Shown one piece after another: positions 18,758-39,102 of a DNA stretch of 64,000 bases. This stretch comes from a phage: NCBI GenBank assembly GCA_019897865.1, contig GCA_019897865.1_4532.1; one strand, 5' to 3'. The notes below the pieces were generated by a model. The model did no database searches and was not told the DNA's origin. It was given only the letters and a program-made list of their open reading frames with translations. Each line of letters starts with the position of its first letter. The first letter of the stretch is position 1. The position numbers and the translations under genes are program-made.

Positions 18758-18758
18758 T

Positions 18759-20235: not shown

Positions 20236-20248
20236 TAAGGAGCTAAAA

Positions 20249-20722
20249 ATGCTTAAAATGAAAACAGGTAATCTTATTGATGCCGCTAAAGCAGGCGAAG
20301 TAACTGTTATTGCTCATTGTTGCAATTGTATGTGTAATATGGGAGCAGGAATTGCTCCGCAAATTAAACGAGCATTCCCTTATGCATATGCGGCAGATTT
20401 AGACACAATGGCTGGTGATCAAAGTAAGTTAGGTTCTTTTAGTTTAGGGGTGCCAGACGAACAATCGGACCCTTTGGTATATAATCTATACGGACAATAC
20501 CGTTACGGATACAATGCTAAAGGTCGTCAGTTGGACTATGATGCACTTTACGATGCACTAATAGCTATGGCTAATGATTTGCTTCTCCGTGACCAAAAAT
20601 GTAAGATCGGCTTACCTATGATTGGCGCTGGATATGCTGGAGGTAATTGGGCTATCATCCAAGTGATGATTGAAGAAACTTTAGTAAAAACAGGTCACGA
20701 TGTGACTATTTATAAACTTTAA
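20249..20722 (+). CDS. macro-domain protein (ADP-ribose binding/hydrolysing)
   Basis: Track ORF 20144..20722; ATG at 20249 preceded by AAGGAG; VTVIAHCCNCMCNMGAGIAPQI macro signature. Confidence 0.6.
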   Translation: MLKMKTGNLIDAAKAGEVTVIAHCCNCMCNMGAGIAPQIKRAFPYAYAADLDTMAGDQSKLGSFSLGVPDEQSDPLVYNLYGQYRYGYNAKGRQLDYDALYDALIAMANDLLLRDQKCKIGLPMIGAGYAGGNWAIIQVMIEETLVKTGHDVTIYKL

Positions 20723-20734
20723 GAGGAGATTAGT

Positions 20735-20956
20735 ATGGGTGTTTTTGCAGGTATTGTTGCAGTGGTAAGCTTTTTTGTTATTGCTTTTATGCTTAGTTTG
20801 ATTCCAGCTTGGTTACTGTTGCTGGCTTACAACTATGTTGCTGAAGTTATGGGTCATGCAGATATCACTGTCCCAGTAACCTTCTGGACCGTGGTTTGTG
20901 TTTCGTTTATTCTGGCGGTATTACGAGGAATCTTTTCCTCTCATTCAACAAAATAA
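20735..20956 (+). CDS. small integral membrane protein
   Basis: 73 aa, two hydrophobic helices, AGAGGAG RBS. Confidence 0.5.
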   Translation: MGVFAGIVAVVSFFVIAFMLSLIPAWLLLLAYNYVAEVMGHADITVPVTFWTVVCVSFILAVLRGIFSSHSTK

Positions 20957-20959
20957 GTG

Positions 20960-20987
20960 TTGACATAGTTCTTAAAAAGAGTAAGAT
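20960..20987 (+). promoter_or_regulatory. sigma70-like promoter TTGACA-N16-TAAGAT upstream of TerC
   Basis: -35 at 20960-20965, -10 at 20982-20987; followed by 8-bp stem-loop gcggggaa/ttccccgc at 21000-21018 in the 5' UTR. Confidence 0.5.
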
Positions 20988-21035
20988 ATATCACATGAAG
21001 CGGGGAATAGTTCCCCGCAAAGAGAGGAGAAAAGA

Positions 21036-22010
21036 ATGCAACTCGGTTTCCCAATTATTGATGTAGTTGTTTTAGTTGGTATTTTGGCATTGTCTATTGG
21101 TATCGATTTCTTTGGTCATAAAGAGAATAAAGAAATTGGAATTAAATCTGCTTTGCTTTGGTCTGTTTTTTGGATTGCTTTAGCTTTAGGATATTACGCA
21201 TTCATTTGGGTAGAGCATGGTAAAGAGTTTGCCGCACTTTTCCTAAGTGGATATGTGTTGGAAAAGAGTCTTTCTGTTGATAACCTAATGGTGTTCATGG
21301 CAATTTTTGCAAGCTTTGGAATTAAGAGCACACATCTCCAACATAAGATTTTACTTTGGGGGATTGCAGGAGCCATTGTCTTCCGAGGTATTTTTGTTGC
21401 AGCAGGGACCGCTTTGTTTAACCTTCATTGGTCGGTCCAAGTGTTGTTCGGTTTGATTGTAGCTTGGTCTGCCGTGGCTATCATCAAAGGTGGTGACGAA
21501 GAAGAGGATATTGATTACTCTAAGCATTGGGCTGTTCGTTTAGTAGGTAAAGTTCTGCCTGTGCACAATGCACTGGATGGTGAAAAGTTCATCACCATTA
21601 AGAATGGTATTAAATATGCAACTCCTGCTCTTCTTTGTGTGTTTGTTATTGAGCTTACAGATATTGTCTTCTCTTTTGATTCAGTTCCGGCTGTGATCGG
21701 TGTGACACAAGAACCTCTGCTAGTTTATTCTGCAATGCTGATGGCTGTTCTTGGTTTACGTGCACTTTTCTTTGTGTTAAGTGTAGCTGTGAAATATCTG
21801 GTTCACTTAGAGAAAGCTGTTGCTGTGGTTCTGGTGTTTGTTGGTGCTAAACTTATGTATCACCCGTTCGGTGAAACACTTCATGCCAAGTGGTCATTCC
21901 TCCCGCATGATATTTCCCCTAACGTAAGTCTGATGATTGTTCTAGGCACATTAGCTCTTGGTGTTATTGCAAGCTTTATCTTCCCTGAAAAAGAAGAAGC
22001 TGCTGTTTAA
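21036..22010 (+). CDS. TerC-family integral membrane protein
   Basis: 324 aa, multi-pass hydrophobic; TerC-type motifs including LEKSLSVDNL. Confidence 0.7.
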   Translation: MQLGFPIIDVVVLVGILALSIGIDFFGHKENKEIGIKSALLWSVFWIALALGYYAFIWVEHGKEFAALFLSGYVLEKSLSVDNLMVFMAIFASFGIKSTHLQHKILLWGIAGAIVFRGIFVAAGTALFNLHWSVQVLFGLIVAWSAVAIIKGGDEEEDIDYSKHWAVRLVGKVLPVHNALDGEKFITIKNGIKYATPALLCVFVIELTDIVFSFDSVPAVIGVTQEPLLVYSAMLMAVLGLRALFFVLSVAVKYLVHLEKAVAVVLVFVGAKLMYHPFGETLHAKWSFLPHDISPNVSLMIVLGTLALGVIASFIFPEKEEAAV

Positions 22011-22016
22011 TAGATG

Positions 22017-22041
22017 AGCCTCCTTCGGGAGGCTATTTTAT
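22017..22041 (+). terminator. Rho-independent terminator
   Basis: agcctcc ttcg ggaggct hairpin (UUCG tetraloop) followed by ATTTTAT. Confidence 0.7.
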
Positions 22042-22052
22042 AGGAGAGACTT

Positions 22053-22403
22053 ATGAATAATTTTGATGAAATTCAAGAACTTGTTTGGGATTTATCTGGT
22101 GATGTGGATTACGTTTTAGATTATCTTTCAAAAGTTTACCCTGGGGTAAGCGTTATGATCGTGACCAAAGATCCAATTAATTTGCCTCCTAATGTGGTAG
22201 CTTGTTGTGGGAGTGGTTCAGGGGCAGTGGAGCCTGTATCCCGTTGGGAATTAACTAAAGCTGTTTCAAAACGAAACGGTGAAGTTTTGAATATTGATAT
22301 CGAGCAAATATGGACTTCTCCAGCAGCTAAATGGAATGATCCGAATGGTTGGGACTTGTTCTTCTGGGATAATGAAACTGATGATGAGGTATTTTTAAAA
22401 TGA
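22053..22403 (+). CDS. hypothetical protein
   Basis: 116-aa ORF with AGGAGAG RBS. Confidence 0.5.
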   Translation: MNNFDEIQELVWDLSGDVDYVLDYLSKVYPGVSVMIVTKDPINLPPNVVACCGSGSGAVEPVSRWELTKAVSKRNGEVLNIDIEQIWTSPAAKWNDPNGWDLFFWDNETDDEVFLK

Positions 22404-22645
22404 AATACTTGTTGGTTGTGTTTGAAAATATTTGTTTTGCAATAGGGTTGTTTGTTGTAATTTTTGTATTGACAAGCGTAATCAACGGCAGTAAAGTGAG
22501 TTTATACCGAGATGGAGAGCAACTTTATTGCTTCTCTGGAGATTTCAAACACAGATGTATTAATAGCCAAAACGAGGAAAGCAAATATGAAAAAACTAGC
22601 CCTGATTTTAATTGGTTGTATCTTTTTAACAGCTTGCGAGGATGA
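22400..22645 (+). CDS. putative small membrane protein (overlaps lipoprotein gene; extent uncertain)
   Basis: 81-aa ORF with hydrophobic N-terminus; 3' end overlaps 22587..23024 by 59 nt. Confidence 0.3.
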   Translation: MKYLLVVFENICFAIGLFVVIFVLTSVINGSKVSLYRDGEQLYCFSGDFKHRCINSQNEESKYEKTSPDFNWLYLFNSLRG

Positions 22646-23024
22646 AACAAATCCTGCACAATACCAACAACCTCCTCAACAATACGCTCAACAAGGATCT
22701 GAAGGAGATACAACTATTATCAACAATGGTGGCGGTTCTAGTAGTAGCGGTGTTGGTGAGTTTGCTACAGGTATGTTGTTAGGGCATATGATGAGTGGCG
22801 GTAGTAATCGTAGCAGTGGGGATTATAACGATAACAGAACGATTATTAATAAGCATTATAATACACCTAAACCGAAAACTAATTTTTATGGTAAGCCTAA
22901 ACAAGAGATAAAAACTTATGAAAAGCCGAGACAAACTTTTAAAACAAATAGTAGCTATACAACTCGTAAATCTTACAATAGCCCTTTAAGTAAAAAGAGT
23001 TCATCTCGTAGCAAGCGACGTTAA
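22587..23024 (+). CDS. lipoprotein (signal peptidase II lipobox), Gly/Ser/Asn-rich
   Basis: MKKLALILIGCIFLTAC with L-T-A-C lipobox; track ORF 22512..23024 has internal ATG at 22587. Confidence 0.6.
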   Translation: MKKLALILIGCIFLTACEDETNPAQYQQPPQQYAQQGSEGDTTIINNGGGSSSSGVGEFATGMLLGHMMSGGSNRSSGDYNDNRTIINKHYNTPKPKTNFYGKPKQEIKTYEKPRQTFKTNSSYTTRKSYNSPLSKKSSSRSKRR

Positions 23025-23038
23025 TAAGGAGAAAAACA

Positions 23039-23632
23039 ATGACAATTTCTATTCGTACTTCCATTGTAGGTGTTAAAAGGTTGCCTAATGCTTTGCAAAT
23101 CACACGCGCTTTGAGGGATACATTCTCTGCTGTGGACGAGCATAAGATGCTTGATAATCTTTCAAATTGGCCCTATTTCCATTATTTTAAAAATGAAGAT
23201 GACGAGTTTATAGACGCTGTTTCTTATGGTTATGATTTCGGTAAGGAGGTTTCTGCTGAAGAATTTGTAGCTATGGTGTTCCCAAACGGTTTGCCTACTC
23301 GCAGTAAACGTAAAAAAGGACCAAAAAACAAGAAACGTGCTACTAATAAAGCTACCATTTTCTTTACTGATGGCACACAATATACGATTAAAGATTTTGA
23401 AGAGGTATCTTATACAGCAGGTGGGAATCTTTCTTTCTACACCATCAAAAAACAAAACTCTACGTTCAGCCATGTTTCTAACATGATTGAAATGTTAGTA
23501 GAAGATATTGAAAGCGTAGCTGTGTTAGGTATGCATAAAAGCTTTTTAATTACAAATATTTCAGATTTCAGTGCACGTTTATCTGGCCCTGATTTTGAAG
23601 CCACGACCACGCATTTCACTTTTAAGGTGTAA
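23039..23632 (+). CDS. hypothetical protein
   Basis: 197-aa ORF. Confidence 0.5.
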   Translation: MTISIRTSIVGVKRLPNALQITRALRDTFSAVDEHKMLDNLSNWPYFHYFKNEDDEFIDAVSYGYDFGKEVSAEEFVAMVFPNGLPTRSKRKKGPKNKKRATNKATIFFTDGTQYTIKDFEEVSYTAGGNLSFYTIKKQNSTFSHVSNMIEMLVEDIESVAVLGMHKSFLITNISDFSARLSGPDFEATTTHFTFKV

Positions 23633-23635
23633 GTT

Positions 23636-24226
23636 ATGTATACCGAGAGAGACTTGCAACTCTTGTGGTGGGAAGTGATGCAGGAAATAAAAGAAGATTT
23701 TCCTGTTTACTACAACATGTTACGTGAAGCAGGATATAAAGCTTGCGTTAGAAACAAAGTGAATAACTCTTTCGGTTGGTGCAACTACCGAGATAAAATT
23801 GTTGTTGTAAATTGGCACTTGCATAAGAACTCTACAAGAGATATGATCGTGGATACAATGAAGCACGAAATTGCTCATGCTATTGATGGTTGTATGGGTA
23901 AGTTTAGTCGGCACGGTGCTCATTGGCAAAAACTGGCAGCAGAATTAGGGGCAAACCCTAAAGCTACTTCCAAAGAGCCGTTGAACCATGAATATAAATA
24001 TGTTCTTGTTTTGGTGGATAGGTTTGCGACAAGATGTGTTAGAGGGTATAATCGTAAACCTAATCGCATGTATCCAGGTAAGCAACCTAATATGTGGTTA
24101 AAATCAGATAAAGAAGGAACAGAAGGAAAATTATGGTTGTATAAATGGGACGATTGGGTTAAAGTAGCTAAAGAATACGGTGTTTCACCATATATAAGAG
24201 ATGCAGAAGAGGAGAATGAAGAATGA
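23636..24226 (+). CDS. SprT-like zinc metalloprotease-domain protein
   Basis: 196 aa; HExxH motif in MKHEIAHAIDG. Confidence 0.45.
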   Translation: MYTERDLQLLWWEVMQEIKEDFPVYYNMLREAGYKACVRNKVNNSFGWCNYRDKIVVVNWHLHKNSTRDMIVDTMKHEIAHAIDGCMGKFSRHGAHWQKLAAELGANPKATSKEPLNHEYKYVLVLVDRFATRCVRGYNRKPNRMYPGKQPNMWLKSDKEGTEGKLWLYKWDDWVKVAKEYGVSPYIRDAEEENEE

Positions 24227-25335
24227 CAAGTCCGTTTTTAAAAGCAGCTACTGGTGGTCAGAAGAAGTCTGAAATGAGTGTATTCACTGCAACAACAGAT
24301 GCAAGTAAATCTGTATTTGCTCCAACCGTGTTAGATGCCAGTCCTGTTTATGCACCAGCCGCACCGCAAGAAGTCCCAGTTTTGCCTTCTATGACACGAC
24401 AAGAGATCGAAGAGATCGGGGCAGAGGCAGGAACAACCTTGCGTTCCTTGAATGCCGAGGTATTAAAACATCAACGTAGTAATCAAGGCGATCAGATGAG
24501 TGAACGACTCACAGCTTTGATTAAACAGGCAAAACAACTTGATCCAAACTCTATTAAACAAAGCAAAGGTATTACTAAACTCATTAAAAAAGTTATGGGT
24601 ATGAAAGAAGACCTGTTTGGGGAGTTTGATAATGTTAATAACCGTATTGAAGAGTTGGTAAAGAACCTTCAAATGGATATTCGCAAAGAAGAAGATTCCT
24701 TGGTATATCTTGAAAAGCTACATCAAGCTATTGGACAATATGCTGCAAGTTTGAACCGAGATATGCAGCTTCTAACAGCAACCTATGAAAAAGAAGAACA
24801 AGCTTTGGCTGCTCTTCCAAAAGATGCGGTAGAACAGCGACAAGCGATCCGAGATACCTTGGATCTTCTGGAGATTCGTATTGCGGATTTAAAAGCATTG
24901 CGCCTACTGTGTGTCCAAATGGGACCACGTGTGCAAGGTATGCAAAAAGTTTCTGCAAGCTTAATGCGATCTGCGCGTAACATAGTAAATAATGTTATTC
25001 CTGCTTACTCTGCTAACTTCTCAATGTATATTGAGAGCTTACGTCAAATGAAAGCCGCAGAGACACAGAATAACGTTCTTGATGAATTTAACCTGGCAAT
25101 TAAACTGGGTAGCGATCTTGCCACACAGAATCAGATCGAAGCAGCAGCACTGGCTAACCGTCAAGTGTTGGATATTGAAACTCTGCGTCACGATCAGGAA
25201 AACTTGGTCAAAATGTTGGAAGAAACTAACCGCATCAATACGGAAGCCCGTGCTGCCCGTGTTGATTACATCAATGAAGTTCAATCTCTCGAAGATGGGA
25301 TGGTTGACGCTGTTAAGAAGGGGTTGGGTAAATGA
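24223..25335 (+). CDS. TelA-like (toxic anion resistance) helical protein
   Basis: 370 aa, Ala/Pro-rich N-terminus then long helical region; size and context fit TelA/KlaA family. Confidence 0.4.
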   Translation: MTSPFLKAATGGQKKSEMSVFTATTDASKSVFAPTVLDASPVYAPAAPQEVPVLPSMTRQEIEEIGAEAGTTLRSLNAEVLKHQRSNQGDQMSERLTALIKQAKQLDPNSIKQSKGITKLIKKVMGMKEDLFGEFDNVNNRIEELVKNLQMDIRKEEDSLVYLEKLHQAIGQYAASLNRDMQLLTATYEKEEQALAALPKDAVEQRQAIRDTLDLLEIRIADLKALRLLCVQMGPRVQGMQKVSASLMRSARNIVNNVIPAYSANFSMYIESLRQMKAAETQNNVLDEFNLAIKLGSDLATQNQIEAAALANRQVLDIETLRHDQENLVKMLEETNRINTEARAARVDYINEVQSLEDGMVDAVKKGLGK

Positions 25336-25538
25336 GAATCCGTGTATACATGCTTGACGAACAAGCTGGAGAAATAGGTGTTCGTTATGACGAAGAGAAA
25401 CGCTTTGCCCCAATGACCCAGCTACAAACTCCAGATATTTTTGCAGCTTGTCGTGATGGATATATCTATGAAGGTTGTCGTAACTTTGGTAGATTTAAAG
25501 TTATTTCTGATGTGGACTTTAATGAGGAAGAAGAATGA
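25332..25538 (+). CDS. hypothetical small protein
   Basis: 68-aa ORF. Confidence 0.45.
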   Translation: MRIRVYMLDEQAGEIGVRYDEEKRFAPMTQLQTPDIFAACRDGYIYEGCRNFGRFKVISDVDFNEEEE

Positions 25539-25708
25539 AAACTTTACGAGTGAATATTGAAACTGCTTGGTGTGGATGCAATGAGGTTGTGGATATCGAA
25601 ATTGAAGATGATATGTCTCAAGAGGATATAGAAGATCTTGCACACGAAACCTTTCAGGACTATTGTAGCTATGGGTTTCATATTTTAGAGGAGAAAGAAG
25701 ATGCATAA
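25535..25708 (+). CDS. hypothetical small acidic protein (57 aa), not in ORF track
   Basis: ATG at 25535 after GAGGAAG; MKTLRVNIETAWCGCNEVVDIEIEDD... Confidence 0.4.
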   Translation: MKTLRVNIETAWCGCNEVVDIEIEDDMSQEDIEDLAHETFQDYCSYGFHILEEKEDA

Positions 25709-25898
25709 TCCAAAACCTGATACCATTACGTTGACTCGACAGGAACTGATCACAATCATTGAAGATGCTTTTATTGATGGTTGGAATACACAAGATAATG
25801 ATTGGGGTGGACCTGAAGCTTTTCTAGAACATCATAAAGCGTATGGAGAATTTTGTGAAACCACTGTAGCTCTTGATAATCTGAAGGAGGGTTTGTAA
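25701..25898 (+). CDS. hypothetical small protein
   Basis: 65-aa ORF. Confidence 0.45.
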   Translation: MHNPKPDTITLTRQELITIIEDAFIDGWNTQDNDWGGPEAFLEHHKAYGEFCETTVALDNLKEGL

Positions 25899-26461
25899 TG
25901 GGTTGTTTTAGCTTTTTGTGTAAGGAATCGGGCAAAGCTGCCCTTTCTACTTCTTTCGACGGATCACCTTGCTATCTCTTTCTTTTGAAGGATGGTGTTG
26001 TTATTGAAGAGATGTATGGCAACTATGATAGTTATGGTTGTGTTTTCTCTGGAAAGGAGGATGAAAATGGCGTTCGTGAACGGTTCGAATGGGCTATGGA
26101 TTGGGGTAAGGTTTGTGATTTAATGCATTCCTCGAATCCAAGGGACGGTATCGCTATGGTGCTGGAAGAGTATTTTACAGGTGAAATCCCTACAGAACAA
26201 TCTGACGGAGATCCTAACCAAGGTTGGGGTGATGGCGAAGAAGATCCAGATTGTTTTTTCAGCACAGAAAAGAATAAGTTTAAACGTGTTGACAACCCTT
26301 ATCACAAAGTGCATAATACTCTCATTGAAACAGAAGATGACAAGATGGAAATTGAAGAAGATGATCCTCTTGTAACACTTCCTATAAGTGAGTTACAAAA
26401 GATCACTAAGGAAGCTTACGATTTGGGCTTCAAAATTGGTAGAGGAGGTATGCGTGTTTAG
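25898..26461 (+). CDS. hypothetical acidic protein
   Basis: 187-aa ORF. Confidence 0.5.
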   Translation: MGCFSFLCKESGKAALSTSFDGSPCYLFLLKDGVVIEEMYGNYDSYGCVFSGKEDENGVRERFEWAMDWGKVCDLMHSSNPRDGIAMVLEEYFTGEIPTEQSDGDPNQGWGDGEEDPDCFFSTEKNKFKRVDNPYHKVHNTLIETEDDKMEIEEDDPLVTLPISELQKITKEAYDLGFKIGRGGMRV

Positions 26462-26732
26462 ATTCAATATTCAAGAAGAAAAGTGTCAGGATTTACCTAT
26501 TGCTTTCGAAGATCTTGGCATAGGGGACACATTCATGTATTATGATGCCTATGAAGACGCAGGGTTGGATACCTACCGTAACTTGGTGTTCATTAAAAAT
26601 TCCACAAACAGTGCGATCTGTATTAATGGATCACTAGCACAACGAGGCTATACTCATTGCATCCCACCAGATACAAATATGGTGGAAGTAGATTTAGAAG
26701 TTACCAATATTACACTTAAGAAGGAGAAATAA
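26454..26732 (+). CDS. small protein, paralog A of duplicated module
   Basis: GTG start 6 nt after AGGAGG; about 40 percent identical to 27754..28023 product (shared DLxxGDTFxY..A.E..GLD and EV.L.VT.ITLK). Confidence 0.5.
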   Translation: MFRFNIQEEKCQDLPIAFEDLGIGDTFMYYDAYEDAGLDTYRNLVFIKNSTNSAICINGSLAQRGYTHCIPPDTNMVEVDLEVTNITLKKEK

Positions 26733-26733
26733 T

Positions 26734-27528
26734 ATGTCCGAGAAAATCAGCCTGAAAAAACGTCAAGAAAACCTTGCTTTCTCTCTGAAAAAGAATAAGA
26801 ACCTGAACGAAGGTAAGATTGTTCTTCGTGTAGCATGTGCTCTAGATATTTCTGGTAGTATGCATGGTCTATATACTCGTGGGGTAGTGAGTGATTTTGT
26901 AGGTAAACTGCTTCCTTTTGGTATGCTGTTCGACGATAATGAACAAATTGACATGTGGGCCTTCAATACGAGTTCTCAAGAGCTTACTCCAGCAACAGCA
27001 GACGTTTACGATGACTACGTTGGTAAATGTATGCGTAATGTTCGTATCGGAGGTGGAACAAATTACGCCCCTGTAATGGCAGATATCTACGATGAGTATT
27101 TTGGCACTGTTACCAAATATGTTACCACTAAACAAGTGGTACAAGAGGAGGCTCCAAAGAAAGGCTTCTTTAATCGTCTGCTTGGTAAAACTGAAACAGT
27201 GTCTGTAGAGCGTGAAAAAGTTGTAGCTGTATCTGAACCAGGTGCTGACGTTACCCCTGGTGTTGTATTCTTCCAGACGGATGGTGAGAATGGTGATCCT
27301 AGTGCTGTTCGTCGTCTTATTGAAGAGAATAAGAATAAACCTATTTATTGGTTCATGGTTGGCGTTGGTAATGAGAAGTTTGGCTTCCTGAAAGAACTGG
27401 CAAATGCTTATGATAATGTTGGTTTTATTGGCATTAAAGATTTAGACTTGACAGATTCAGAGCTTTATGACAAACTCTTATCTGAAGAGTTCGGAGAGTG
27501 GGTTGTTAAAGTAGGTGCTAAAAAATGA
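26734..27528 (+). CDS. vWA-domain protein (TerF/TerY-like) with TerD-like N-terminal KISLKK motif
   Basis: 264 aa; MIDAS-like DISGSM; N-terminus MSEKISLKK mirrors TerD N-terminus. Confidence 0.55.
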   Translation: MSEKISLKKRQENLAFSLKKNKNLNEGKIVLRVACALDISGSMHGLYTRGVVSDFVGKLLPFGMLFDDNEQIDMWAFNTSSQELTPATADVYDDYVGKCMRNVRIGGGTNYAPVMADIYDEYFGTVTKYVTTKQVVQEEAPKKGFFNRLLGKTETVSVEREKVVAVSEPGADVTPGVVFFQTDGENGDPSAVRRLIEENKNKPIYWFMVGVGNEKFGFLKELANAYDNVGFIGIKDLDLTDSELYDKLLSEEFGEWVVKVGAKK

Positions 27529-27773
27529 TCGACGAGCTTGCCTCTCAAGTCATAGAAAATTATTGGCGCGAGAGAGAAGCTTTCATTATGCGCAGTCTCA
27601 AAGAGTATTTCATTGGGACTGTGCGAATGGAAGATATTGTAAGTAGAGTAGAGATTCATGTATGGCCTGATTATGAAGAATGGGTTGACAAAGAAAATGA
27701 AAATGCTATAATTCTTCGTATATACAAACCGGAGATAACATTAGGAGGAAGAAGTGTTAAACTTCGAAATTGA
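27525..27773 (+). CDS. hypothetical small protein
   Basis: 82-aa ORF. Confidence 0.4.
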   Translation: MIDELASQVIENYWREREAFIMRSLKEYFIGTVRMEDIVSRVEIHVWPDYEEWVDKENENAIILRIYKPEITLGGRSVKLRN

Positions 27774-28023
27774 TGAGCAAAAAGTAAATAAACGATGCCT
27801 TACCATTAAAGATTTGGATGTAGGAGATACTTTCGTCTATGAAAATGCATTTGACGAAAATGGTTTAGACCTTAGTGAAATCATTGTTTATTTAAAAGTA
27901 GATGATGGGGAAAATGATTATTCTGCTGTAGAACTAAACCATCATGCACAATTAGTATCAATCCAAAACACATCTAAGCTTTTGGAAGTAGAATTGACTG
28001 TAACTGGTATTACACTTAAATAA
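27754..28023 (+). CDS. small protein, paralog B of duplicated module
   Basis: GTG start after AGGAGG; paralog of 26454..26732. Confidence 0.5.
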   Translation: MLNFEIDEQKVNKRCLTIKDLDVGDTFVYENAFDENGLDLSEIIVYLKVDDGENDYSAVELNHHAQLVSIQNTSKLLEVELTVTGITLK

Positions 28024-28038
28024 TAGAGGAGACAAAAG

Positions 28039-28641
28039 ATGACTGATAAAATTTCCCTGAAAAAAGGCTCTAGCGAAAAAATTTCCCTGAAGAAAGTTGC
28101 TCCGGCTCTGAAAGAACTGCGCCTGGAATTCTCTTGGAAATCTGATTCTAAACTAGATCTGGATGTAAGTGCACTGGTTTGTCGTCATAATGCCGCTGGC
28201 AATCCTGAAATGCTGTCCGCACGTCATCTGGTTTGCTATGCTAATAAGTTTGATCCTGAACGTTCTACCTTCGCTGGTGACGATGTTCGTGATGGAACTG
28301 GCAGCATGGAGCAGATTGATATTACTCTGGCTAAAATCTCTCCTGATGCACAAGAGATTGCCTTTGTTCTGACTATTGATGATGATACAGGTCTGAAACG
28401 TTTTGGTCATGCTTCTGAAGGTATGCTTAAAATCTTCGACTCCGAGCGTAATGTGGAAATTCTGGATTTTGACTTCCTGGCTCCTGAAGTAGCTGGCAAC
28501 ACAATCTGCCACGTGGCTTCCCTGGTTCGTGAAGATGGAGAATGGAAGCTGAAAGCATATGGTGTAGGTAAAGCTGGTCTGGATATTTGCGATGTGGTGA
28601 TGGCCTTCGGTGGTAAAAAAGAATGGTATGAATGTCCATAA
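28039..28641 (+). CDS. terD: TerD-family protein
   Basis: 200 aa; ISLKKG...ISLKK, LDLDVSAL, GDDVRDGTG, GEWKLKAYGVGKAGL match the TerD fold signature. Confidence 0.8.
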   Translation: MTDKISLKKGSSEKISLKKVAPALKELRLEFSWKSDSKLDLDVSALVCRHNAAGNPEMLSARHLVCYANKFDPERSTFAGDDVRDGTGSMEQIDITLAKISPDAQEIAFVLTIDDDTGLKRFGHASEGMLKIFDSERNVEILDFDFLAPEVAGNTICHVASLVREDGEWKLKAYGVGKAGLDICDVVMAFGGKKEWYECP

Positions 28642-28679: not shown

Positions 28680-28708
28680 TTGCAATAAAGCCTCTATCGT
28701 GTTATACT
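28680..28708 (+). promoter_or_regulatory. sigma70-like promoter TTGCAA-N17-TGnTATACT
   Basis: -35 at 28680-28685; extended -10 TG at 28700-28701 and TATACT at 28703-28708. Confidence 0.55.
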
Positions 28709-28740: not shown

Positions 28741-29262
28741 TTGCTGATAAAAAACTTTGTAACAGTTGCGTTACTATCCTTAACTGCTTTTACATTTACA
28801 CCTGTTGTGGCGAAAGCCGAAGCTGCAAACGTAAAAACCGCTAAAGTAGTTCACAAATGTACAAAGCAATATAATGATAAAATTCTATTAGCTTGTGCAA
28901 TTTACGCAGAAGGTCGCGGTCTGGGTAAAAAAGGAATGAATGCCGTTGGGAATGTGGTAATCAACAGAAGAAATGATGCCTACTTCCCTAACACAGTCAA
29001 GGGAGTCTTGTTCCAGAAAGGGCAATTCTCATATGCGAAAACTTTTAACGTGACAGAGAAAGATAAGTGGCAGGAAGCAAAAGCAATAGCGGAGCGTTTA
29101 CTTTATTTAGAGAAACATTTTCCTGAATTGCGGTCTGTTTTAGATGTTACTAAAGGTGCTCTATACTTCAAGAAACGGAATATAAGGACACACTGGGAGC
29201 GTGATATGCGTCTTGTTTATCGAGATAAAGTGCATGGTTTCTATCTACCAAAGGGGAGTTAA
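28741..29262 (+). CDS. SleB/CwlJ-like cell-wall hydrolase with signal peptide
   Basis: TTG start 6 nt after AAAGGAGG; signal peptide MLIKNFVTVALLSLTAFTFTPVVAKA; LLACAIYAEGRG...VGNVVINRR...GQF motifs. Confidence 0.6.
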   Translation: MLIKNFVTVALLSLTAFTFTPVVAKAEAANVKTAKVVHKCTKQYNDKILLACAIYAEGRGLGKKGMNAVGNVVINRRNDAYFPNTVKGVLFQKGQFSYAKTFNVTEKDKWQEAKAIAERLLYLEKHFPELRSVLDVTKGALYFKKRNIRTHWERDMRLVYRDKVHGFYLPKGS

Positions 29263-29963: not shown

Positions 29964-30527
29964 ATGATTTATTATATTACTCCCTATCTGACAGGAAATA
30001 TCGGCAAGGCTATCAATGAAGCTATTGCCGTTCTTCCAGATGATAGTTGGGTGTGCTTAAGAGATACCGATACAATGTTCCTCCTACCTGATCAACCATC
30101 TATGCTTGAAGAGCTTGTTATGTCAAACCCGCCTTTTGATGTAATAGGTGCAACTTGTAACAGGTTAGGTAGTGGTTATCAGCTTTTCTCTAACCAAATT
30201 AACGATGATCCAGATATTCTAAACCATATAGAATATGCTAAGATTGCAAGAGAATATCATAAAGTGAGTGTTGAAGAAGTTCCTTTCGGAACACCTCTGG
30301 CAGGTTTCTTTTTGCTTTTTAGAAAATCATTGTGGAATGAAATTCCTTTCGAAGAAAAATCTATCCAATTCGACCTAATTTTCTCTCGCACTTTACATGA
30401 AAAAGGAAAGAGGTTAGGATTGATGCGGGGAATGTATCTGTTTCACATTTACAGATTAGGTCAAACAAATCCTCAACGGTCTATACATCATTTATTACAC
30501 TGTCACGATCACAGTAAAACTATCTAG
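29964..30527 (+). CDS. putative GT-A-fold glycosyltransferase
   Basis: 187 aa; N-terminal ITPY...N.G and acidic CLRDTDT segment. Confidence 0.35.
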   Translation: MIYYITPYLTGNIGKAINEAIAVLPDDSWVCLRDTDTMFLLPDQPSMLEELVMSNPPFDVIGATCNRLGSGYQLFSNQINDDPDILNHIEYAKIAREYHKVSVEEVPFGTPLAGFFLLFRKSLWNEIPFEEKSIQFDLIFSRTLHEKGKRLGLMRGMYLFHIYRLGQTNPQRSIHHLLHCHDHSKTI

Positions 30528-30535
30528 GAGAGAAA

Positions 30536-31219
30536 ATGGAAAATATTAAAATCGGAGTGGGTGTTATCACTGTAGGTGTCCGTCCACTTAAAGACTATCT
30601 TGTAACAGATCCACATGCAGATTTTCGAGTATTCAACGATCCAGATCGTAAAGGTGTAGCTTACGCCAGGAATGAACTTATGCACCAGTTTTATGAAGAA
30701 GGTTATGATTATTGGTTTATTTTTGACGACGATTGCTACCCAATCATGGAGGGATGGGAAACATATTTTGTAGATCAAGCTGTCTCTGGAGGATGGGATT
30801 TCTTTGGTATGCCGGAGTATTTCAAAGATAAAGTTGTTGGGAGTAAAGGAGAAGTTATTCTCTGGGAACTTGCAATGTGTCAATTTGCAATGTATTCTCG
30901 TGCCGTTGTTGAGAAGATGGGTTATTTCCGCCCTTACACTCACGGCTATGGTTTTGAAGATGCTGAATGGGTACACCGTTTGAAAGCTGCTGGTTTGAAT
31001 CAGGGTATTCAGGCAATACCTTGTCCACTTCGTATCATGGCTTATATCCACCCAGACGATGTTTTTGGAAACAATCCTATGCCTTTTGCTAATCTGACAA
31101 AAGAAGAGAAAGAAGCTGCTATTGGCATTAACTGGGAAGAATATAAAGCGTCTTTAGAAGATATTAAAAATGGGAAAATCCGAATTTCTTATGAGGAGGC
31201 ACTGGCACATGTCAAATAA
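30536..31219 (+). CDS. putative GT-A-fold glycosyltransferase
   Basis: 227 aa; FIFDDDCYP (DxD-like) and GYGFEDAEW motifs. Confidence 0.4.
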   Translation: MENIKIGVGVITVGVRPLKDYLVTDPHADFRVFNDPDRKGVAYARNELMHQFYEEGYDYWFIFDDDCYPIMEGWETYFVDQAVSGGWDFFGMPEYFKDKVVGSKGEVILWELAMCQFAMYSRAVVEKMGYFRPYTHGYGFEDAEWVHRLKAAGLNQGIQAIPCPLRIMAYIHPDDVFGNNPMPFANLTKEEKEAAIGINWEEYKASLEDIKNGKIRISYEEALAHVK

Positions 31220-32156
31220 AAAACGGACTAAACTGAAAATTGATGCAAAACCTCACAGTGGTTGTGATTATCATCGTATTGTTATACCATTTAACAACAA
31301 TAATTTTCAGCCTAAGAAAGATGTTGTCGTGTTTAACCGTATTCATTCTAAAGGGGCAGAATACGTTCTGTCCCTGAAACGTCAAGGTGTTAAGATTGTT
31401 GTAGATTTAGATGATTTCTACCAACTTAATCCAGAACATTATTTAGCAAGTTTATATGAGTCAAACACTCATGCTATTGTAGCTATGGTTAAGCTTGCCG
31501 ATGTGGTCATTGTGACTACGGAATATTTGGCATATAAGATCCGTCACTTAAATAGGAATGTTGTTGTGATCCGAAATGCACTTCCTTTTGATAGCGGACA
31601 ATTCACTTTGTCAAATGATCGTTCATCCGGTACCCCTGTTGTATGGGCTGGAGGTGCTAGTCACGAACCCGATTTACGACTAGTCTCTAACACTTTTGAT
31701 GATGAACTTCTTACTATTGCGGGGTATGAAGCTTCGCAGAGTATCACAGGGCAAGAGTGGATTAAGATCCGTAGAAATTTACCAAATGCCAAATATAAAG
31801 CTGCTGTAAAAGATTTAGATAATTACATGAGTGTTTACGAAAGTCATGCTATTGCTATAGCTCCTTTGGTAGATAATGATTTTAATAATTGTAAAAGTAA
31901 TCTCAAAATCCTTGAAGCTGGGGCAAAAGGTATTCCGATTGTTTGTTCTAAGGTATTACCTTATTTTAACCCTGTAGATGCTCGCGCTGTTGCTTATGCA
32001 GAGAATAAAGCAGAATGGCATTACGAAATTGTTAAACTTCTTCGCAATCCGAACTATCGGGAAGATCGTGGCTTGTTCTTAGCGGAACATGTTCGAACAC
32101 ATTATAATCTGGCAGATGCAAACGAATTGCGACGCCAGGTTATTGAAAGTTTGTAG
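31209..32156 (+). CDS. putative GT-B-fold glycosyltransferase (paralog 1)
   Basis: Track ORF 31170..32156; ATG at 31209 after GAGGAGG; KSNLKILEAGAKGIPIVCS motif. Confidence 0.4.
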   Translation: MSNKKRTKLKIDAKPHSGCDYHRIVIPFNNNNFQPKKDVVVFNRIHSKGAEYVLSLKRQGVKIVVDLDDFYQLNPEHYLASLYESNTHAIVAMVKLADVVIVTTEYLAYKIRHLNRNVVVIRNALPFDSGQFTLSNDRSSGTPVVWAGGASHEPDLRLVSNTFDDELLTIAGYEASQSITGQEWIKIRRNLPNAKYKAAVKDLDNYMSVYESHAIAIAPLVDNDFNNCKSNLKILEAGAKGIPIVCSKVLPYFNPVDARAVAYAENKAEWHYEIVKLLRNPNYREDRGLFLAEHVRTHYNLADANELRRQVIESL

Positions 32157-32163
32157 GTGAAGT

Positions 32164-33108
32164 ATGGGACAAATAATTCTTGACAATCGTAACGGAATCA
32201 ATTATAGTGTCTGCGATTTCCATAGGGTAGTGCTGCCTTACTCAAGGCAGTTCTCTTCACAACCTAAACACAACGTTTTCGTTTTTAACGGAGTGCCAAC
32301 AAAAGGTAAAGAGGGCTTTTTAGCCCTTAAAAACCTAGGCTTTAAAATGGTTATGGATTTGGATGACTCTTTAGTTATTCCAAAAGGACACATGTTAGAA
32401 GGTATTTTTGAATCAGGTATTCGTGAACATTTAAAATGGTTTTTAGAGCACAGTGATCTTGTTACAACTACGACACCTGCCTTGCAAGTTGAACTTTCAC
32501 AATACAATGATAATGTGCACATAATCCCTAATGGACTTCCTTACGATGAAGGTCAATTTGTGTTGACCCGTGACCGCTACTCCAAAACTCCATTAGTCTG
32601 GGCTGGAAGTGAAACACATAAACAAGATTTGGCTATCTTGCCCGATTTTGGTAAAGATCTTACAATATGTGGTTTTCGTAGGGATTCTGAAGTTTTAAGT
32701 AGTCGTGAATGGTCTGTAATTAGAGAAAATGTAGCACCAACTTGTGTTTATGAAGGTGTAAGACCATATGCCAACTACATGGAATCTTACGATGGTCATC
32801 AAATCAGTCTTGCACCATTGATCGATAACGTGTTTAATAATGCAAAAAGCAATCTTAAAATTCTTGAGGCAGGTGCTAAGGGTTTACCTTTAATCTGCTC
32901 TCCTCGTGAGAATTATCATACACAAGAGTTTAAAGATTTGTTATTCTTTGCTGAAACACCTTCCGAGTGGAAAGATATTACGGAATACTTATTAAGTGCT
33001 CCCGATGTTTGCATGGAGAAAGGATTAGCATTAGCTAAGTATGTCAGGACTCATTATCACATTGATGTGTTGAATGAGCGTCGTAGACTTTTATTTGAGG
33101 AGCTATAA
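32164..33108 (+). CDS. putative GT-B-fold glycosyltransferase (paralog 2)
   Basis: 314 aa; shares CD(F/Y)HR(V/I)V(L/I)P and NLKILEAGAKG(L/I)P motifs with 31209..32156. Confidence 0.4.
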   Translation: MGQIILDNRNGINYSVCDFHRVVLPYSRQFSSQPKHNVFVFNGVPTKGKEGFLALKNLGFKMVMDLDDSLVIPKGHMLEGIFESGIREHLKWFLEHSDLVTTTTPALQVELSQYNDNVHIIPNGLPYDEGQFVLTRDRYSKTPLVWAGSETHKQDLAILPDFGKDLTICGFRRDSEVLSSREWSVIRENVAPTCVYEGVRPYANYMESYDGHQISLAPLIDNVFNNAKSNLKILEAGAKGLPLICSPRENYHTQEFKDLLFFAETPSEWKDITEYLLSAPDVCMEKGLALAKYVRTHYHIDVLNERRRLLFEEL

Positions 33109-33386
33109 TGATTAACACTTTTGATTTTGAATACACCACTCGTAACGGGAAAGCCTTGGTCGTGGAGGTGGATTACTATTATGAAGAACCTAATCCACTT
33201 TCTCGTGAAAGCGATTGGGATTACCACGGAGGGCTTTTAATTGACGGTATTCGTTTTTATGAAGGATCTACAGAAGTTTTTGAAAAAGATTTAAATGTAA
33301 CTGTAGCAGAAATTGCTTTCCAATTTAGAAAGCACATGGAAGAACTAGAAGCAGAATATATGATGGAGACTAACGAACCATTTTAA
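33108..33386 (+). CDS. hypothetical protein
   Basis: 92-aa ORF, start overlaps upstream stop. Confidence 0.5.
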   Translation: MINTFDFEYTTRNGKALVVEVDYYYEEPNPLSRESDWDYHGGLLIDGIRFYEGSTEVFEKDLNVTVAEIAFQFRKHMEELEAEYMMETNEPF

Positions 33387-35207: not shown

Positions 35208-35236
35208 TTGACAACTTTACGGAAGGGACTTATACT
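35208..35236 (+). promoter_or_regulatory. sigma70-like promoter TTGACA-N17-TATACT
   Basis: -35 at 35208-35213 and -10 at 35231-35236. Confidence 0.6.
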
Positions 35237-35710: not shown

Positions 35711-36505
35711 TTGAGCAAGTTGAATACACTTGATCAATATTACACTAACCCCGCTTATGCGGGGTTCTTATGTGATAAGATCAAAGAAATTTTTGGAGAG
35801 GAAGCTAACTACGTAGAACCATCTGCGGGAGAAGGAGCTTTCTCTTCTTGTTTTAAAAACATAACTTCTTTTGATATTGACCCTAAGTTTGAAGATTGTA
35901 TTGAGGCAGATTTTTTAGCTCAATCTGTTGAGTCTGTTGGCAGTGTAACTGCTTTTGTCGGTAATCCTCCGTTTGGAAAAAATGCTAGTCTTGCCATTAA
36001 GTTCTTTAACCATTGTGCTGAAATGTTGGATAACGAAGGTGGTATTTGTTTTATCTTGCCTCGCACATTTCAAAAAATCTTTTTTGCACACAAACTAAAT
36101 CCCCACATGCATCTTCTTTACGAAGAAGAATGTCCAAAAGGATCTTTTATTCTTCATGGAGAACCTTGGGATGTTCCTTGTGTATTCCAGATATGGATTA
36201 AACGCAACGAGAAGCGTTCTCCCGTTGTTTTAGGAGAGAATCGACTGTTCGTATTAGGTAACAGTAAAGACTACGATATAGCCGTTAGGAGAGCGGGAGC
36301 AAGTGCAGGTAAAGTGTTATCAGAAGAAGATTCTTTATCTGAAGCATCTACCTATTTTTTAAAAGCCTTGACTTCTGATCTTAAAACGCGTATCATTGAG
36401 GCTTACCCGTTACTTAAAGCTGAAGCTAGTAAAACTGCGGGAGTAAGAAGTTTAAGTTTAAAAGAACTTCAGTGGGTTCTGGAGAACATTAGAAAGGAGG
36501 AATAG
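35711..36505 (+). CDS. N6-adenine (amino) DNA methyltransferase
   Basis: 264 aa; AdoMet motif EPSAGEGAF followed by catalytic NPPF; TTG start after AGGAGG. Confidence 0.65.
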   Translation: MSKLNTLDQYYTNPAYAGFLCDKIKEIFGEEANYVEPSAGEGAFSSCFKNITSFDIDPKFEDCIEADFLAQSVESVGSVTAFVGNPPFGKNASLAIKFFNHCAEMLDNEGGICFILPRTFQKIFFAHKLNPHMHLLYEEECPKGSFILHGEPWDVPCVFQIWIKRNEKRSPVVLGENRLFVLGNSKDYDIAVRRAGASAGKVLSEEDSLSEASTYFLKALTSDLKTRIIEAYPLLKAEASKTAGVRSLSLKELQWVLENIRKEE

Positions 36506-39102
36506 TGAGTAAGTTTACATGGGATATTGAAGCAAACGGATTGTTGAATAATGACACTATTGATTATTTAGCTAGTCCTTATCGTCTCAAAGACACATTT
36601 CAAATGCACTGTATTGTCTTAGAGAACCATGAAACAGGAGAAATAGTAGCTTTCCACGATGGCCCTAAATACATCTTTGATGGGCGTCCTTATGAAGAGT
36701 CAGATGGTAAATACACATATGTTCTTAAAGAGTATGTGGCGCAAGATTACACGCATTTTCAACTAAAAGATTTCCCAGACTTTATTAATCATGAAGGTTA
36801 TTTTAAAGACAAGCCTGAATATCTGGTTGAAATGGCTGTGGCTCACAACGGTATCAACTACGACTGGTTGGCTACAAAACTGTTTTATGGATTAGATTAC
36901 AGTGTTAAATATAATACGTGGGGCAAAAATAAGGTAAAACTTATTGACTCCTTGATTTTGAGTAAAGTGTTAAACCCAGATCGAAAGATTGAGGGCAAAT
37001 CAGGACATAGCTTGGCAGCACTTTCTCGAAAAGCAGGTGGTGATGTAAAAATAGATTTCCGTAAAGAGATTCCAGAAGAAGATCGATTTAAGACTTTTGC
37101 TGCGGATATGCTTTATTACTGTATCTATGACAACAAAGCCAATACGAGCGTATATAACTACCTTATGGAAGAATGGGGCGATTATGATAAATGGGAAGGT
37201 CCATTTGAACTTGAACAACGTGTAGCAGACATTATCACACGCCAAGAACACCGTGGGTTTGCTTTTAACATGAAGCAAGCAGAAGAGAACCTTGCTTTTT
37301 TGGATGCAGAAATGGAGCGTCTTCGTTTACTCGTTGAGCCTATTTTGCCACCTAAACCAGCAACAAAAGGCTATCTTAAGGCTTTTATTCCACCTAAGTT
37401 GCAAATTAAAAAGAACTTAGAGCCAACTAACCATATGATCAATTTTGCTAAGAAACATGATGGTCATTTGGAAGAGAGGGATGGCGATTGGTGGTTAGTT
37501 ATGTTGGGGAAAGAGTGGAAACTGCCAGTTGCAGCAGATGAACCTCTATGTGATCCTAACATCCCTGCAACATTGAACGATACAACCCATATTAAAAACT
37601 GGCTTGTAGGATTAGGTTGGGTACCGTCTGAATATAAAGATAAAGACTTGACCCTTAAATCTGGAACCAAGATTAAAAAGAGCGAGGAAGAACTTCAGAA
37701 AGGTATTCGAGCTTACGTTGAGCAAACTCTATCTTCTAATTTTTGTCAGGATCGTTGTGATCATCTGGAGTGCACACCGGAAACCTTGGAAAGGAAGATT
37801 CAAGAGCGTATAGCAAAAGGTAAAGGTCGCGGTCTTAAAGTATTGACTAACCCATGTTTTACCAAAGGTCAGGAAAAAGAAATTTGTCCTAACCTGCAAG
37901 CTTTGGGTGAGAAATTTCCTTATGCTACACAGATTGTAGAATACTTAACGTATAAACACCGTAGGAACTCTATTTTAGGTGGTGGTGCCGATTGGGAAGA
38001 AGACGAAGAAGATCAAGAATACGATAAAGGTTTCTTAGCCGCAGTAAGGGCGGATGGTCGTATTCCTACCCCAGCCGCTACATGTGATGCTGCAACCTCT
38101 CGTATGAAGCATAGATCTGTAGCTAATATTCCTCGTGTCACATCTTTGTTTGGATGGGAGATGCGTAACTTGTTTGGTGTGGAGGTTCCTAAATACTTCC
38201 AGATTGGTTATGACTTCGACTCTTTGGAAGCAAAGATTGAGTCACATTATTGTTGGCGCTACGAACCGGAGCCTCATGAATACTGTAACGCTCTCTTGTT
38301 AGAGAAGCCTAACGATGTTCATACCATGATGGCAAAACGTATTACAGACACTATTGGACGTAAGTTTGAACGTAGTCCAGCGAAATCTGTTAAATACGGG
38401 ATCACTTATGGTGCACAAGCAGACAAGGTTGCTAAAACAATTGGTAGCGATAAGTTTACAGGTCAGTTAGTGTTCGATGCTTTCTGGGAAGCTGCATTCC
38501 CACTGGCACGTCTTAAAGAACGTTTAAACGATTTCTGGGTTAAGACTGGTAAACAGTATGTTTTGGGTATTGACGGTCGTAAGGTTCCTACTCGTTCTGC
38601 TCACGCGATTCTTAACTCTCTGTTCCAAAGTGGTGGGGTTATCTGTGCTAAACGTGCAATGGTTATTTATGACGATATGATCGAAGAAGAAGGACTAAGT
38701 GTTGACTTCTTTAAAGATGACTGGAAGAATAAAGACTTCGTGCAACAAATGATTGCATACCACGATGAAGCCCAGCTTGAAGTTTCTCGTAACCTTGTAG
38801 AATTCAAATGGTTTTCACCTGAATCGTTAGGTTGGAAGAAAGTAGACGATCCTGAAGAACAAAAGAAAATTGATAAAGAATGCCTTGCTAAAGTTGAAGA
38901 ATGGAAGCATAATAAGGAAAAAGAGACGGGACAAATTTGGGCTAATATTCATGAATCTCCCAAAGGTGGATGGTTTACAGCCTATAGTCGGGCAGGTGAA
39001 CTTGCTGCCTTAGCTGTTACTAAGGCTGGAGAATTTTACAATCTTAATGTTCAGCTTACTGCCGGATATGACGTGGGTAATTCCTGGGCATCCTGTCATT
39101 GA
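36505..39102 (+). CDS. family A DNA polymerase with 3'-5' exonuclease domain
   Basis: 865 aa; Exo I WDIEANGL, motif A GYDFDSLEAKI, motif B RSPAKSVKYGITYG, motif C YHDEAQ; GTG start after AAGGAGG. Confidence 0.8.
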   Translation: MSKFTWDIEANGLLNNDTIDYLASPYRLKDTFQMHCIVLENHETGEIVAFHDGPKYIFDGRPYEESDGKYTYVLKEYVAQDYTHFQLKDFPDFINHEGYFKDKPEYLVEMAVAHNGINYDWLATKLFYGLDYSVKYNTWGKNKVKLIDSLILSKVLNPDRKIEGKSGHSLAALSRKAGGDVKIDFRKEIPEEDRFKTFAADMLYYCIYDNKANTSVYNYLMEEWGDYDKWEGPFELEQRVADIITRQEHRGFAFNMKQAEENLAFLDAEMERLRLLVEPILPPKPATKGYLKAFIPPKLQIKKNLEPTNHMINFAKKHDGHLEERDGDWWLVMLGKEWKLPVAADEPLCDPNIPATLNDTTHIKNWLVGLGWVPSEYKDKDLTLKSGTKIKKSEEELQKGIRAYVEQTLSSNFCQDRCDHLECTPETLERKIQERIAKGKGRGLKVLTNPCFTKGQEKEICPNLQALGEKFPYATQIVEYLTYKHRRNSILGGGADWEEDEEDQEYDKGFLAAVRADGRIPTPAATCDAATSRMKHRSVANIPRVTSLFGWEMRNLFGVEVPKYFQIGYDFDSLEAKIESHYCWRYEPEPHEYCNALLLEKPNDVHTMMAKRITDTIGRKFERSPAKSVKYGITYGAQADKVAKTIGSDKFTGQLVFDAFWEAAFPLARLKERLNDFWVKTGKQYVLGIDGRKVPTRSAHAILNSLFQSGGVICAKRAMVIYDDMIEEEGLSVDFFKDDWKNKDFVQQMIAYHDEAQLEVSRNLVEFKWFSPESLGWKKVDDPEEQKKIDKECLAKVEEWKHNKEKETGQIWANIHESPKGGWFTAYSRAGELAALAVTKAGEFYNLNVQLTAGYDVGNSWASCH

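Follow-up and report, generated by a model that had tools for sequence, protein, structure and literature searches.

The glycosyltransferase locus

We analysed a stretch of phage DNA of 64,000 nucleotides (GenBank assembly GCA_019897865.1, contig GCA_019897865.1_4532.1), hereafter called the window, which carries four consecutive genes for glycosyltransferase-like proteins on the + strand. These are the open reading frames (ORFs) ORF1 (29964-30527, 187 amino acids (aa)), ORF2 (30536-31219, 227 aa), ORF3 (31209-32156) and ORF4 (32164-33108, 314 aa). ORF3 has 315 aa from the ATG used in RefSeq, and a longer reading frame with a start at 31170 is possible. The four genes are co-directional and nearly spacer-free; ORF2 and ORF3 overlap by 11 nucleotides, and the stop codon of ORF4 overlaps the start of the following gene.

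To place the window among known phages, we compared the segment 29500-33500 with public records. Coverage of 80% or more was reached by 71 phage records, among them the Escherichia phages ESCO25 and AV125 (99.4% identity) and ESCO5 (99.3%). This similarity identifies the window as part of a Phapecoctavirus (Stephanstirmvirinae), a phAPEC8-like virulent myovirus of E. coli with relatives of about 150 kb. Statements on the genome outside the window were made on the near-identical ESCO5 (NC_047776.2), in which window position x lies at about 140509 - x on the reverse strand. RefSeq names all four proteins “glycosyltransferase” (gp211-gp214 in ESCO5), and in PHROGs they belong to families 14179, 2456 and 7162 (two of the proteins in 7162), each labelled glycosyltransferase. 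The basic call is thus already public at the level of annotation.

Fold and family assignment of the four enzymes

ORF1 contains the motif RDTDT (RDxDT in its family), of which D34 and D36 are invariant among 23 aligned homologs. Its predicted structure is a single Rossmann-like alpha/beta/alpha domain like those of solved GT-A enzymes, and the model places the DxD motif at the end of the central beta-strand (E29-33/E37-39). The fold neighbours include the prophage-encoded wall-teichoic-acid transferase TarP, TarS and RmlT. By model and motif, ORF1 is a minimal, soluble GT-A glycosyltransferase. A relationship between ORF1 and ORF2 was not detectable by BLASTP.

ORF2 matched PHROG 2456 (E = 2.9e-79) and PHROG 1579 (E = 7.7e-13). 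In its FDDD motif, D64, D65 and D66 are invariant among 14 homologs and nearly so in 66 distant relatives, and E141-D142 of a YGFED motif are invariant as well. The protein itself remained below the Pfam cut-offs for GT2 (13 bits), Glyco_transf_7C (14.4 bits) and TAGT (19.2 bits). An exhaustive profile search gave 968 relatives of ORF2, and 66 relatives found with its family profile at E <= 1e-14 were sampled. GT2 matched 38/66 of the sample (best 1.7e-33), Glyco_transf_7C 26/66 and TAGT 10/66 (best 1.6e-5). Because the relatives found with its family profile match GT2, ORF2 was assigned by transitive homology, at profile level, to the GT2-type GT-A enzymes.

Over 303 aa, ORF3 and ORF4 have 41% identity (E = 1e-77), and both contain the motif SNLKILEAGAKG(I/L)P. 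K228, K232 and E235 are conserved inside KSNLKILEAGAKG, in the C-terminal nucleotide-sugar-binding region; by our reading of the alignment, the canonical EX7E lacks conservation at its first Glu. ORF4 shows two Rossmann-like domains as in solved GT4 enzymes, and its closest fold neighbours include PglH/WlaC, PglA, PimA, WaaG and WbnH. It passed the Pfam cut-off for Glyco_trans_1_2 (25.2 bits, cut-off 25). ORF3 matched PHROG 7162 (E = 1e-148) and was slightly under the cut-offs for Glyco_trans_1_4 and Glyco_trans_1_2, and its GT4-like GT-B fold was assigned through the paralogy with ORF4 and these near-threshold matches. The family profile of ORF3/ORF4 gave weak GT4 matches among PDB chains (TreT, 6e-4; PglA, 0.02), and the profiles of ORF1 and ORF2 gave no useful match there. 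Direct searches of PDB chains with the sequences of ORF1, ORF2 and ORF4 returned nothing meaningful, and none of the four proteins matched NCBIfam.

All four proteins lack a transmembrane segment, with a maximal 19-residue Kyte-Doolittle hydropathy of 0.8-1.65. The isoelectric point of ORF3 is 8.7, and the other three proteins are acidic. These properties point to soluble enzymes rather than Gtr-type membrane proteins. An earlier sequence-only reading had described the locus as two GT-A-like genes with acidic DxD-type motifs followed by two paralogous GT-B-like genes with a common motif, and this description agrees with the fold and motif evidence, in which the fold of ORF2 comes from profiles and that of ORF3 from ORF4.

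A three-gene cassette in unrelated phages

Relatives of ORF1, ORF2 and ORF3 also occur together in phages unrelated to Stephanstirmvirinae. A prophage of Serratia sp. M24T3 carries genes like ORF1 (41%), ORF2 (35%) and ORF3 (51%) in the same order as in the window, with lysis genes on one side and then HNH, terminase, capsid and portal genes. In a P22/Sf6-like contig, ORF3-like and ORF2-like genes lie between terminase and portal, and lambdoid contigs have an ORF2-like and an ORF3-like gene that come after the Q antiterminator/HicAB region and before the holin gene. In the Cellulophaga phage phi18:1, an ORF1-like domain is fused to a TOD1/MUCI70 glycosyltransferase domain; the fusion gene adjoins a Methyltransf_24 gene and is located between the portal/head-morphogenesis and the protease/capsid genes. 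Another contig has a related GT-B together with a GT2, a GT_PLOD-type glycosyltransferase and a DegT aminotransferase. Judged from these gene neighbourhoods, ORF1-ORF2-ORF3 make up a mobile cassette that recurs in unrelated temperate phages near lysis, terminase or head genes. No base-modifying gene was found beside the cassettes of the small phages in the DNA available.

The fourth gene has a narrower distribution. The single GT-B proteins of the other phage contexts are 45-61% identical to ORF3 versus 37-40% to ORF4, and the Klebsiella phage KP13-26 and the divergent contig L011 have only one GT-B at this locus. ORF3 is thus the ancestral GT-B of the cassette and ORF4 a paralog added in the lineage of Phapecoctavirus and Justusliebigvirus. 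All four genes are present with conserved synteny in Justusliebigvirus PHB05.

At a threshold of at least 60% identity, an ORF1 homolog was found in 132 phage records, and RmlC, an enzyme of rhamnose synthesis that was counted separately, was also found in 132. Both were seen in Phapecoctavirus, Justusliebigvirus, phiWec-like phages and Klebsiella phages of Stephanstirmvirinae. The BASEL phages PaulScherrer and EmilieFrey carry an ORF1 homolog; for PaulScherrer, RmlC is listed as well. Some matching records bear unexpected names (Campylobacter phages B15, A145, A150 and A110a, Pseudomonas phage PsgM04F, an Acinetobacter phage and Dompiswa phage TSP7_1) and are Stephanstirmvirinae; some of them are about 99% identical to E. 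coli Phapecoctavirus, which suggests host mis-assignment or carry-over of coliphage.

The gene that follows the last glycosyltransferase (33108-33386) is a conserved ORF of 92 aa of PHROG 4240 (unknown function). It precedes the primase/helicase gene in ESCO5, PHB05, KP13-26 and L011, and the cassettes of the small temperate phages lack it.

Rhamnose genes and position of the cluster

ESCO5 encodes a complete pathway for deoxythymidine diphosphate (dTDP)-L-rhamnose, with RmlD, RmlC, RmlA and RmlB as gp083-086 (Pfam E = 1e-67 to 1e-80). These genes lie about 75 kb from the glycosyltransferase cluster, outside the window, and were invisible to the sequence-only reading; they are the most informative partner of the cluster. 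The full RmlA-D pathway is found together with the glycosyltransferases in ESCO5, and the records of ORF1 and RmlC show that cassette and rml cluster co-occur throughout Stephanstirmvirinae; the product of the pathway may serve one or more of these enzymes.

Within the window, a perfect sigma-70 consensus (TTGACA, 16-nucleotide spacer, TATAAT, extended -10 TG) lies at 27685-27712 inside a small ORF (27525-27773), upstream of the stretch that reaches from terD to the glycosyltransferases. Other sites that match well are at 28680-28708 and 35208-35236. No terminator-like site was found on the + strand between 26.5 and 34.2 kb.

The methyltransferase gene at 35711-36505 has an NPPF motif (FVGNPPFG) and matches PHROG 799, “DNA methyltransferase”, with E = 1e-10 and Pfam Eco57I weakly. 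It belongs to PHROG 5172 (labelled unknown function), and no NCBIfam match was found. Since at least four further genes of ESCO5 are annotated as DNA methyltransferase elsewhere in the genome, this gene has no special link to the glycosyltransferase cluster.

The question of a base-modifying enzyme was also considered. The sequence-only reading had recognised no hydroxymethylase in the window; this holds, and it extends to the rest of the ESCO5 genome as far as annotated. The annotation of the window and of ESCO5 lists no ThyA-type hydroxymethylase and no TET/JBP dioxygenase, a negative that comes from annotation and not from a full sensitive scan. One candidate, the “putative thymidylate synthase” of ESCO5 (332 aa; L002 39755-40753), was rejected as a hydroxymethylase, since Pfam identifies it as ThyX (PF02511, with a partial Thy1 match only) and not as a ThyA-type enzyme.

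Possible acceptors of the glycosyltransferases

Our favoured reading, to which we give a probability of roughly 40%, is that ORF1-ORF4 build a rhamnose-containing glycan stepwise on virion proteins of the phage, as in the mycobacteriophage Che8. The four proteins would be soluble cytoplasmic Leloir-type enzymes, two of them DxD-dependent GT-A and two GT4-like GT-B transferases, which most likely act in sequence to give a short oligosaccharide. At least one of them probably uses dTDP-L-rhamnose made by the phage RmlA-D, and the remaining ones would take uridine diphosphate (UDP) sugars of the host. One or more structural proteins would be the acceptor, and the resulting particles would bear a glycan coat, as in Che8 and, among eukaryotic viruses, in chloroviruses and mimiviruses. 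A stepwise, rhamnose-containing oligosaccharide is suggested by the presence of three to four soluble transferases of different folds together with a dedicated sugar-nucleotide pathway.

Several lines of evidence point to virion proteins rather than DNA as the acceptor. The cassette adjoins late and morphogenesis genes in unrelated phages and is independent of any base-modifying enzyme. Among viruses with a rhamnose-nucleotide pathway of their own, those that have been studied (PBCV-1, Mimivirus) place the sugar on virion glycoproteins. Enzyme types like those described here, SpsA (GT-A), CgeB (a PF13524-type GT-B) and Rml homologs, coat the proteinaceous spore crust of B. subtilis. In addition, ORF2 is homologous to glycosyltransferases of cluster F mycobacteriophages, the cluster of Che8 and Rita, whose glycans are covalently bound to capsid proteins according to a passage in PMC11256854 that cites Freeman 2023. 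In a tblastn comparison with about 350 glycosyltransferases of Mycobacterium cluster F phages (Fruitloop gp99 type), ORF2 was 26-28% identical over about 120-130 residues (E = 1e-7 to 1e-13), a homology that is limited to the nucleotide-sugar-binding half and says little about the acceptor. ORF1, ORF3 and ORF4 had no match in the same comparison.

The short reach of this homology is one of several points that weigh against virion proteins as the acceptor. The late-region sites of the cassette in temperate phages are also typical moron sites. The portal, scaffold, decoration, capsid, neck, sheath and tube proteins of ESCO5 show no Ser/Thr-rich tail or obvious acceptor motif. A search of the literature on glycosylation, rhamnose and DNA modification in Stephanstirmvirinae returned speculation only, with no experimental data and no glycoprotein evidence for any of these phages. 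Moreover, the cluster belongs to the early/middle replication module and is closely followed by the genes for primase/helicase and DNA polymerase. Its transcript has promoters of the sigma-70-like type with no terminator in between, and the rml genes of ESCO5 lie among genes of nucleotide metabolism (ribonucleotide reductase, ThyX, glutaredoxin). Such a placement is what would be expected of a DNA-modifying system such as T4 agt/bgt.

Rhamnose or other sugars might indeed be attached to the bases of the phage DNA, comparable to the glucosylation of hydroxymethylcytosine (HMC) in T-even phages, and protect it from host nucleases. This has already been proposed in print (PMC7552041; PMC10844046), and it draws on the position beside the primase/helicase, N6-adenine methyltransferase and DNA polymerase genes, on promoters compatible with early expression and on matches of ORF2 to Pfam TAGT (E = 0.0013) and to PHROG 842, the beta-glucosyl-HMC-alpha-glucosyltransferase (E = 5e-6). 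We nevertheless consider it quite unlikely. Both matches are weak and neither reaches beyond the generic DxD region, and T4 AGT and BGT are not close fold neighbours. ESCO5 has no annotated ThyA-type dCMP/dUMP hydroxymethylase or TET/JBP dioxygenase, its ThyX implies ordinary thymine, and the small temperate phages carry the cassette with no base-modifying partner in the DNA available. Justusliebigvirus phages share the four glycosyltransferase genes and rml, yet those of the BASEL collection, for all their “putative dTDP glycosylation machinery”, are reported to be “exceptionally susceptible” to restriction-modification systems (PMC8594841). HincII fingerprinting was routine for the ESCO phages, and they were sequenced from Nextera libraries (PMC10269720). 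The sequence-only reading had named DNA, virion proteins and host surface glycans as possible substrates and, fairly, left the choice open. Its lead suggestion, that the cluster and the N6-adenine methyltransferase together may indicate DNA hypermodification, finds no support in view of the ThyX result, the missing annotation of a hydroxymethylase or TET/JBP enzyme, the independent travel of the cassette and the restriction sensitivity of relatives. A variant, in which a rhamnose-containing oligosaccharide is put on DNA through a chemistry that needs no ThyA-type hydroxymethylase or TET/JBP enzyme, would if sparse or sequence-specific leave the relatives sensitive to the restriction systems tested so far; it is the least probable idea considered here, and if true it would be a new class of hypermodification on a mobile three-gene cassette.

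An envelope glycan of the host was also weighed. The enzymes could act at the cytoplasmic face on lipid-linked intermediates, such as lipopolysaccharide (LPS) core, O-unit, enterobacterial common antigen or another undecaprenyl-diphosphate-linked glycan, and so alter the receptor; this could block superinfection or keep progeny off debris, and in temperate phages it would be lysogenic conversion. The fold neighbours of ORF4 do include enzymes with lipid-linked or membrane acceptors, those of ORF1 include the wall-teichoic-acid transferase TarP besides TarS and RmlT, and the cassette of temperate phages sits at classical moron positions, for instance after Q/HicAB and before holin. Surface glycans and the LPS core are also the receptors of these phages (PMC8594841; PMC11990801). 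We still hold this to be unlikely, as neither a flippase nor a GtrA/GtrB/GtrC-type membrane partner nor a transmembrane segment was found, and within the short lytic cycle of a virulent phage only freshly synthesised glycan could be altered, a strategy that the BASEL authors deem futile for abundant glycans (PMC11990801). Eight genes (four rml and four glycosyltransferase genes) would be a heavy investment, and the cassette shares the orientation of the late genes and is packed closely against them. The target could instead be non-structural, either a host protein modified for takeover, as by glycosylating toxins, NleB and EarP, or else a small molecule or a metabolite of nucleotide-like type, which the neighbouring cluster of Ter-like and phosphoribosyltransferase genes might produce. 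The cassettes of small phages have no Ter-like genes, and three to four sequential transferases with a dedicated sugar-nucleotide pathway would be unusual for toxin-like protein glycosylation; we regard a non-structural target as very unlikely.

Comparison with known glycosylation systems

Virion glycosylation in the mycobacteriophages Che8 and Rita is reportedly the subject of a 2023 study by Freeman et al. in Cell Host Microbe (31:1216). Like these cluster F phages, the phage in the window encodes cytoplasmic glycosyltransferases in a small cluster, with ORF2 as the detectable homolog. The ORF1 relative of phi18:1 stands beside a methyltransferase gene in the head module, a further likeness to the Che8 type, and the Che8 operon presumably also holds methyltransferases. 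In contrast to Che8, the window belongs to a 150-kb virulent myovirus of a Gram-negative host, and its cluster is located in the replication module and has no methyltransferase. Two GT4-like GT-B enzymes and a second minimal GT-A have no detected counterpart in mycobacteriophages, and a phage-borne dTDP-rhamnose pathway, as in ESCO5, is a further difference.

Other known systems are more distant. Neither specific similarity nor a 5-hydroxymethylpyrimidine pathway connects the four proteins with the T4 alpha-glucosyltransferase (GT72) and beta-glucosyltransferase (GT63) or with the beta-glucosyl-HMC-alpha-glucosyltransferase of T2/T6. TAGT (PF20691) has a GT-A fold with DxD as in ORF2; the match covers only residues 33-68 of ORF2 at 19.2 bits versus a gathering cut-off of 27.5, no TET/JBP gene is nearby, and the ORF2 relatives score far better on GT2 and Glyco_transf_7C. 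ORF2 was therefore not placed in TAGT. For the conversion of O-antigen (GtrABC) or teichoic acid (TarP of S. aureus) by prophages, the GtrA flippase, the transmembrane helices of GtrB and the GtrC-type membrane transferase are all missing from the cluster and its neighbours, and the phage in the window is virulent by contrast; a Gtr-type system is not indicated. PBCV-1 A064R, Mimivirus R655/R699 with its rhamnose pathway and the sps/cge genes of B. subtilis are analogous in the types of enzymes, with no orthology and with different hosts and acceptors.

The rhamnose link and the speculation about DNA modification had been published before. New in this analysis are the fold-level confirmation of the enzymes, especially of ORF1, the definition of ORF1-ORF2-ORF3 as a mobile cassette and of ORF4 as a duplicate specific to one lineage, the identification of ThyX and the re-ranking of substrates toward virion proteins. 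Conceivably, though short of even odds, this would be the first virion glycosylation system in phages of Gram-negative bacteria; if so, it would also be the first in coliphages, with a host that is easy to handle genetically. If the sugars were on DNA, a new route of hypermodification would be at hand. In either case eight genes (four for glycosyltransferases and four rml) are conserved in a well-sampled phage subfamily, and ORF1-ORF2-ORF3 form a compact, transferable unit. Phapecoctavirus and Justusliebigvirus have very broad host ranges and are in development for therapy and biocontrol (PMC10844046). A glycan coat would change how antibodies recognise the particles and alter their pharmacokinetics, and it might also influence stability or binding to mucus, as has been reported for mycobacteriophages. 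The interest of the locus is moderate; it concerns candidate phages for therapy, and the question is directly testable.

Neighbouring genes

Upstream of the glycosyltransferase cluster, the region 18152-28641 contains Ter-type tellurite-resistance genes together with genes for a ComF-like phosphoribosyltransferase, a Macro-domain protein and an SprT-like protease. The genes are PRTase_3 (19408-20235), Macro (20144-20722), TerC-like (21036-22010), SprT-like (23636-24226), TelA-like (24223-25335), vWA-TerF-like (26734-27528) and TerD (28039-28641), and their synteny is also found in L011. The region resembles the Ter-associated “nucleoside-like metabolite” neighbourhoods that Anantharaman, Iyer and Aravind reportedly described in 2012. 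The Ter-like and phosphoribosyltransferase genes were considered as travelling with the cassette and were rejected, since they are absent from the cassettes of small phages.

Between this region and ORF1, the gene at 28741-29262 encodes an SleB-type cell-wall hydrolase (Pfam Hydrolase_2, E = 2e-17) with a hydrophobic, signal-like N-terminal segment, MLIKNFVTVALLSLTAFTFTPVVAKA. RefSeq names it endolysin despite its early/replication location, and ESCO5 has a separate “putative lysozyme” and spanins elsewhere. The “GTP cyclohydrolase II” of ESCO5 (L004 8437-8979) is a NADAR-domain protein (PF08719, E = 2e-35), so the RefSeq name is imprecise.

The DNA polymerase gene downstream of the methyltransferase (36505-39102) encodes 865 aa, and its ESCO5 ortholog (L001 27006-30338) encodes 1110 aa. 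The difference comes from an in-frame insertion of 244 aa in ESCO5, after residue 583, with flanks that are 99.6-99.8% identical. The phage in the window lacks this insertion, which is presumably an element of the intein or homing-endonuclease type.

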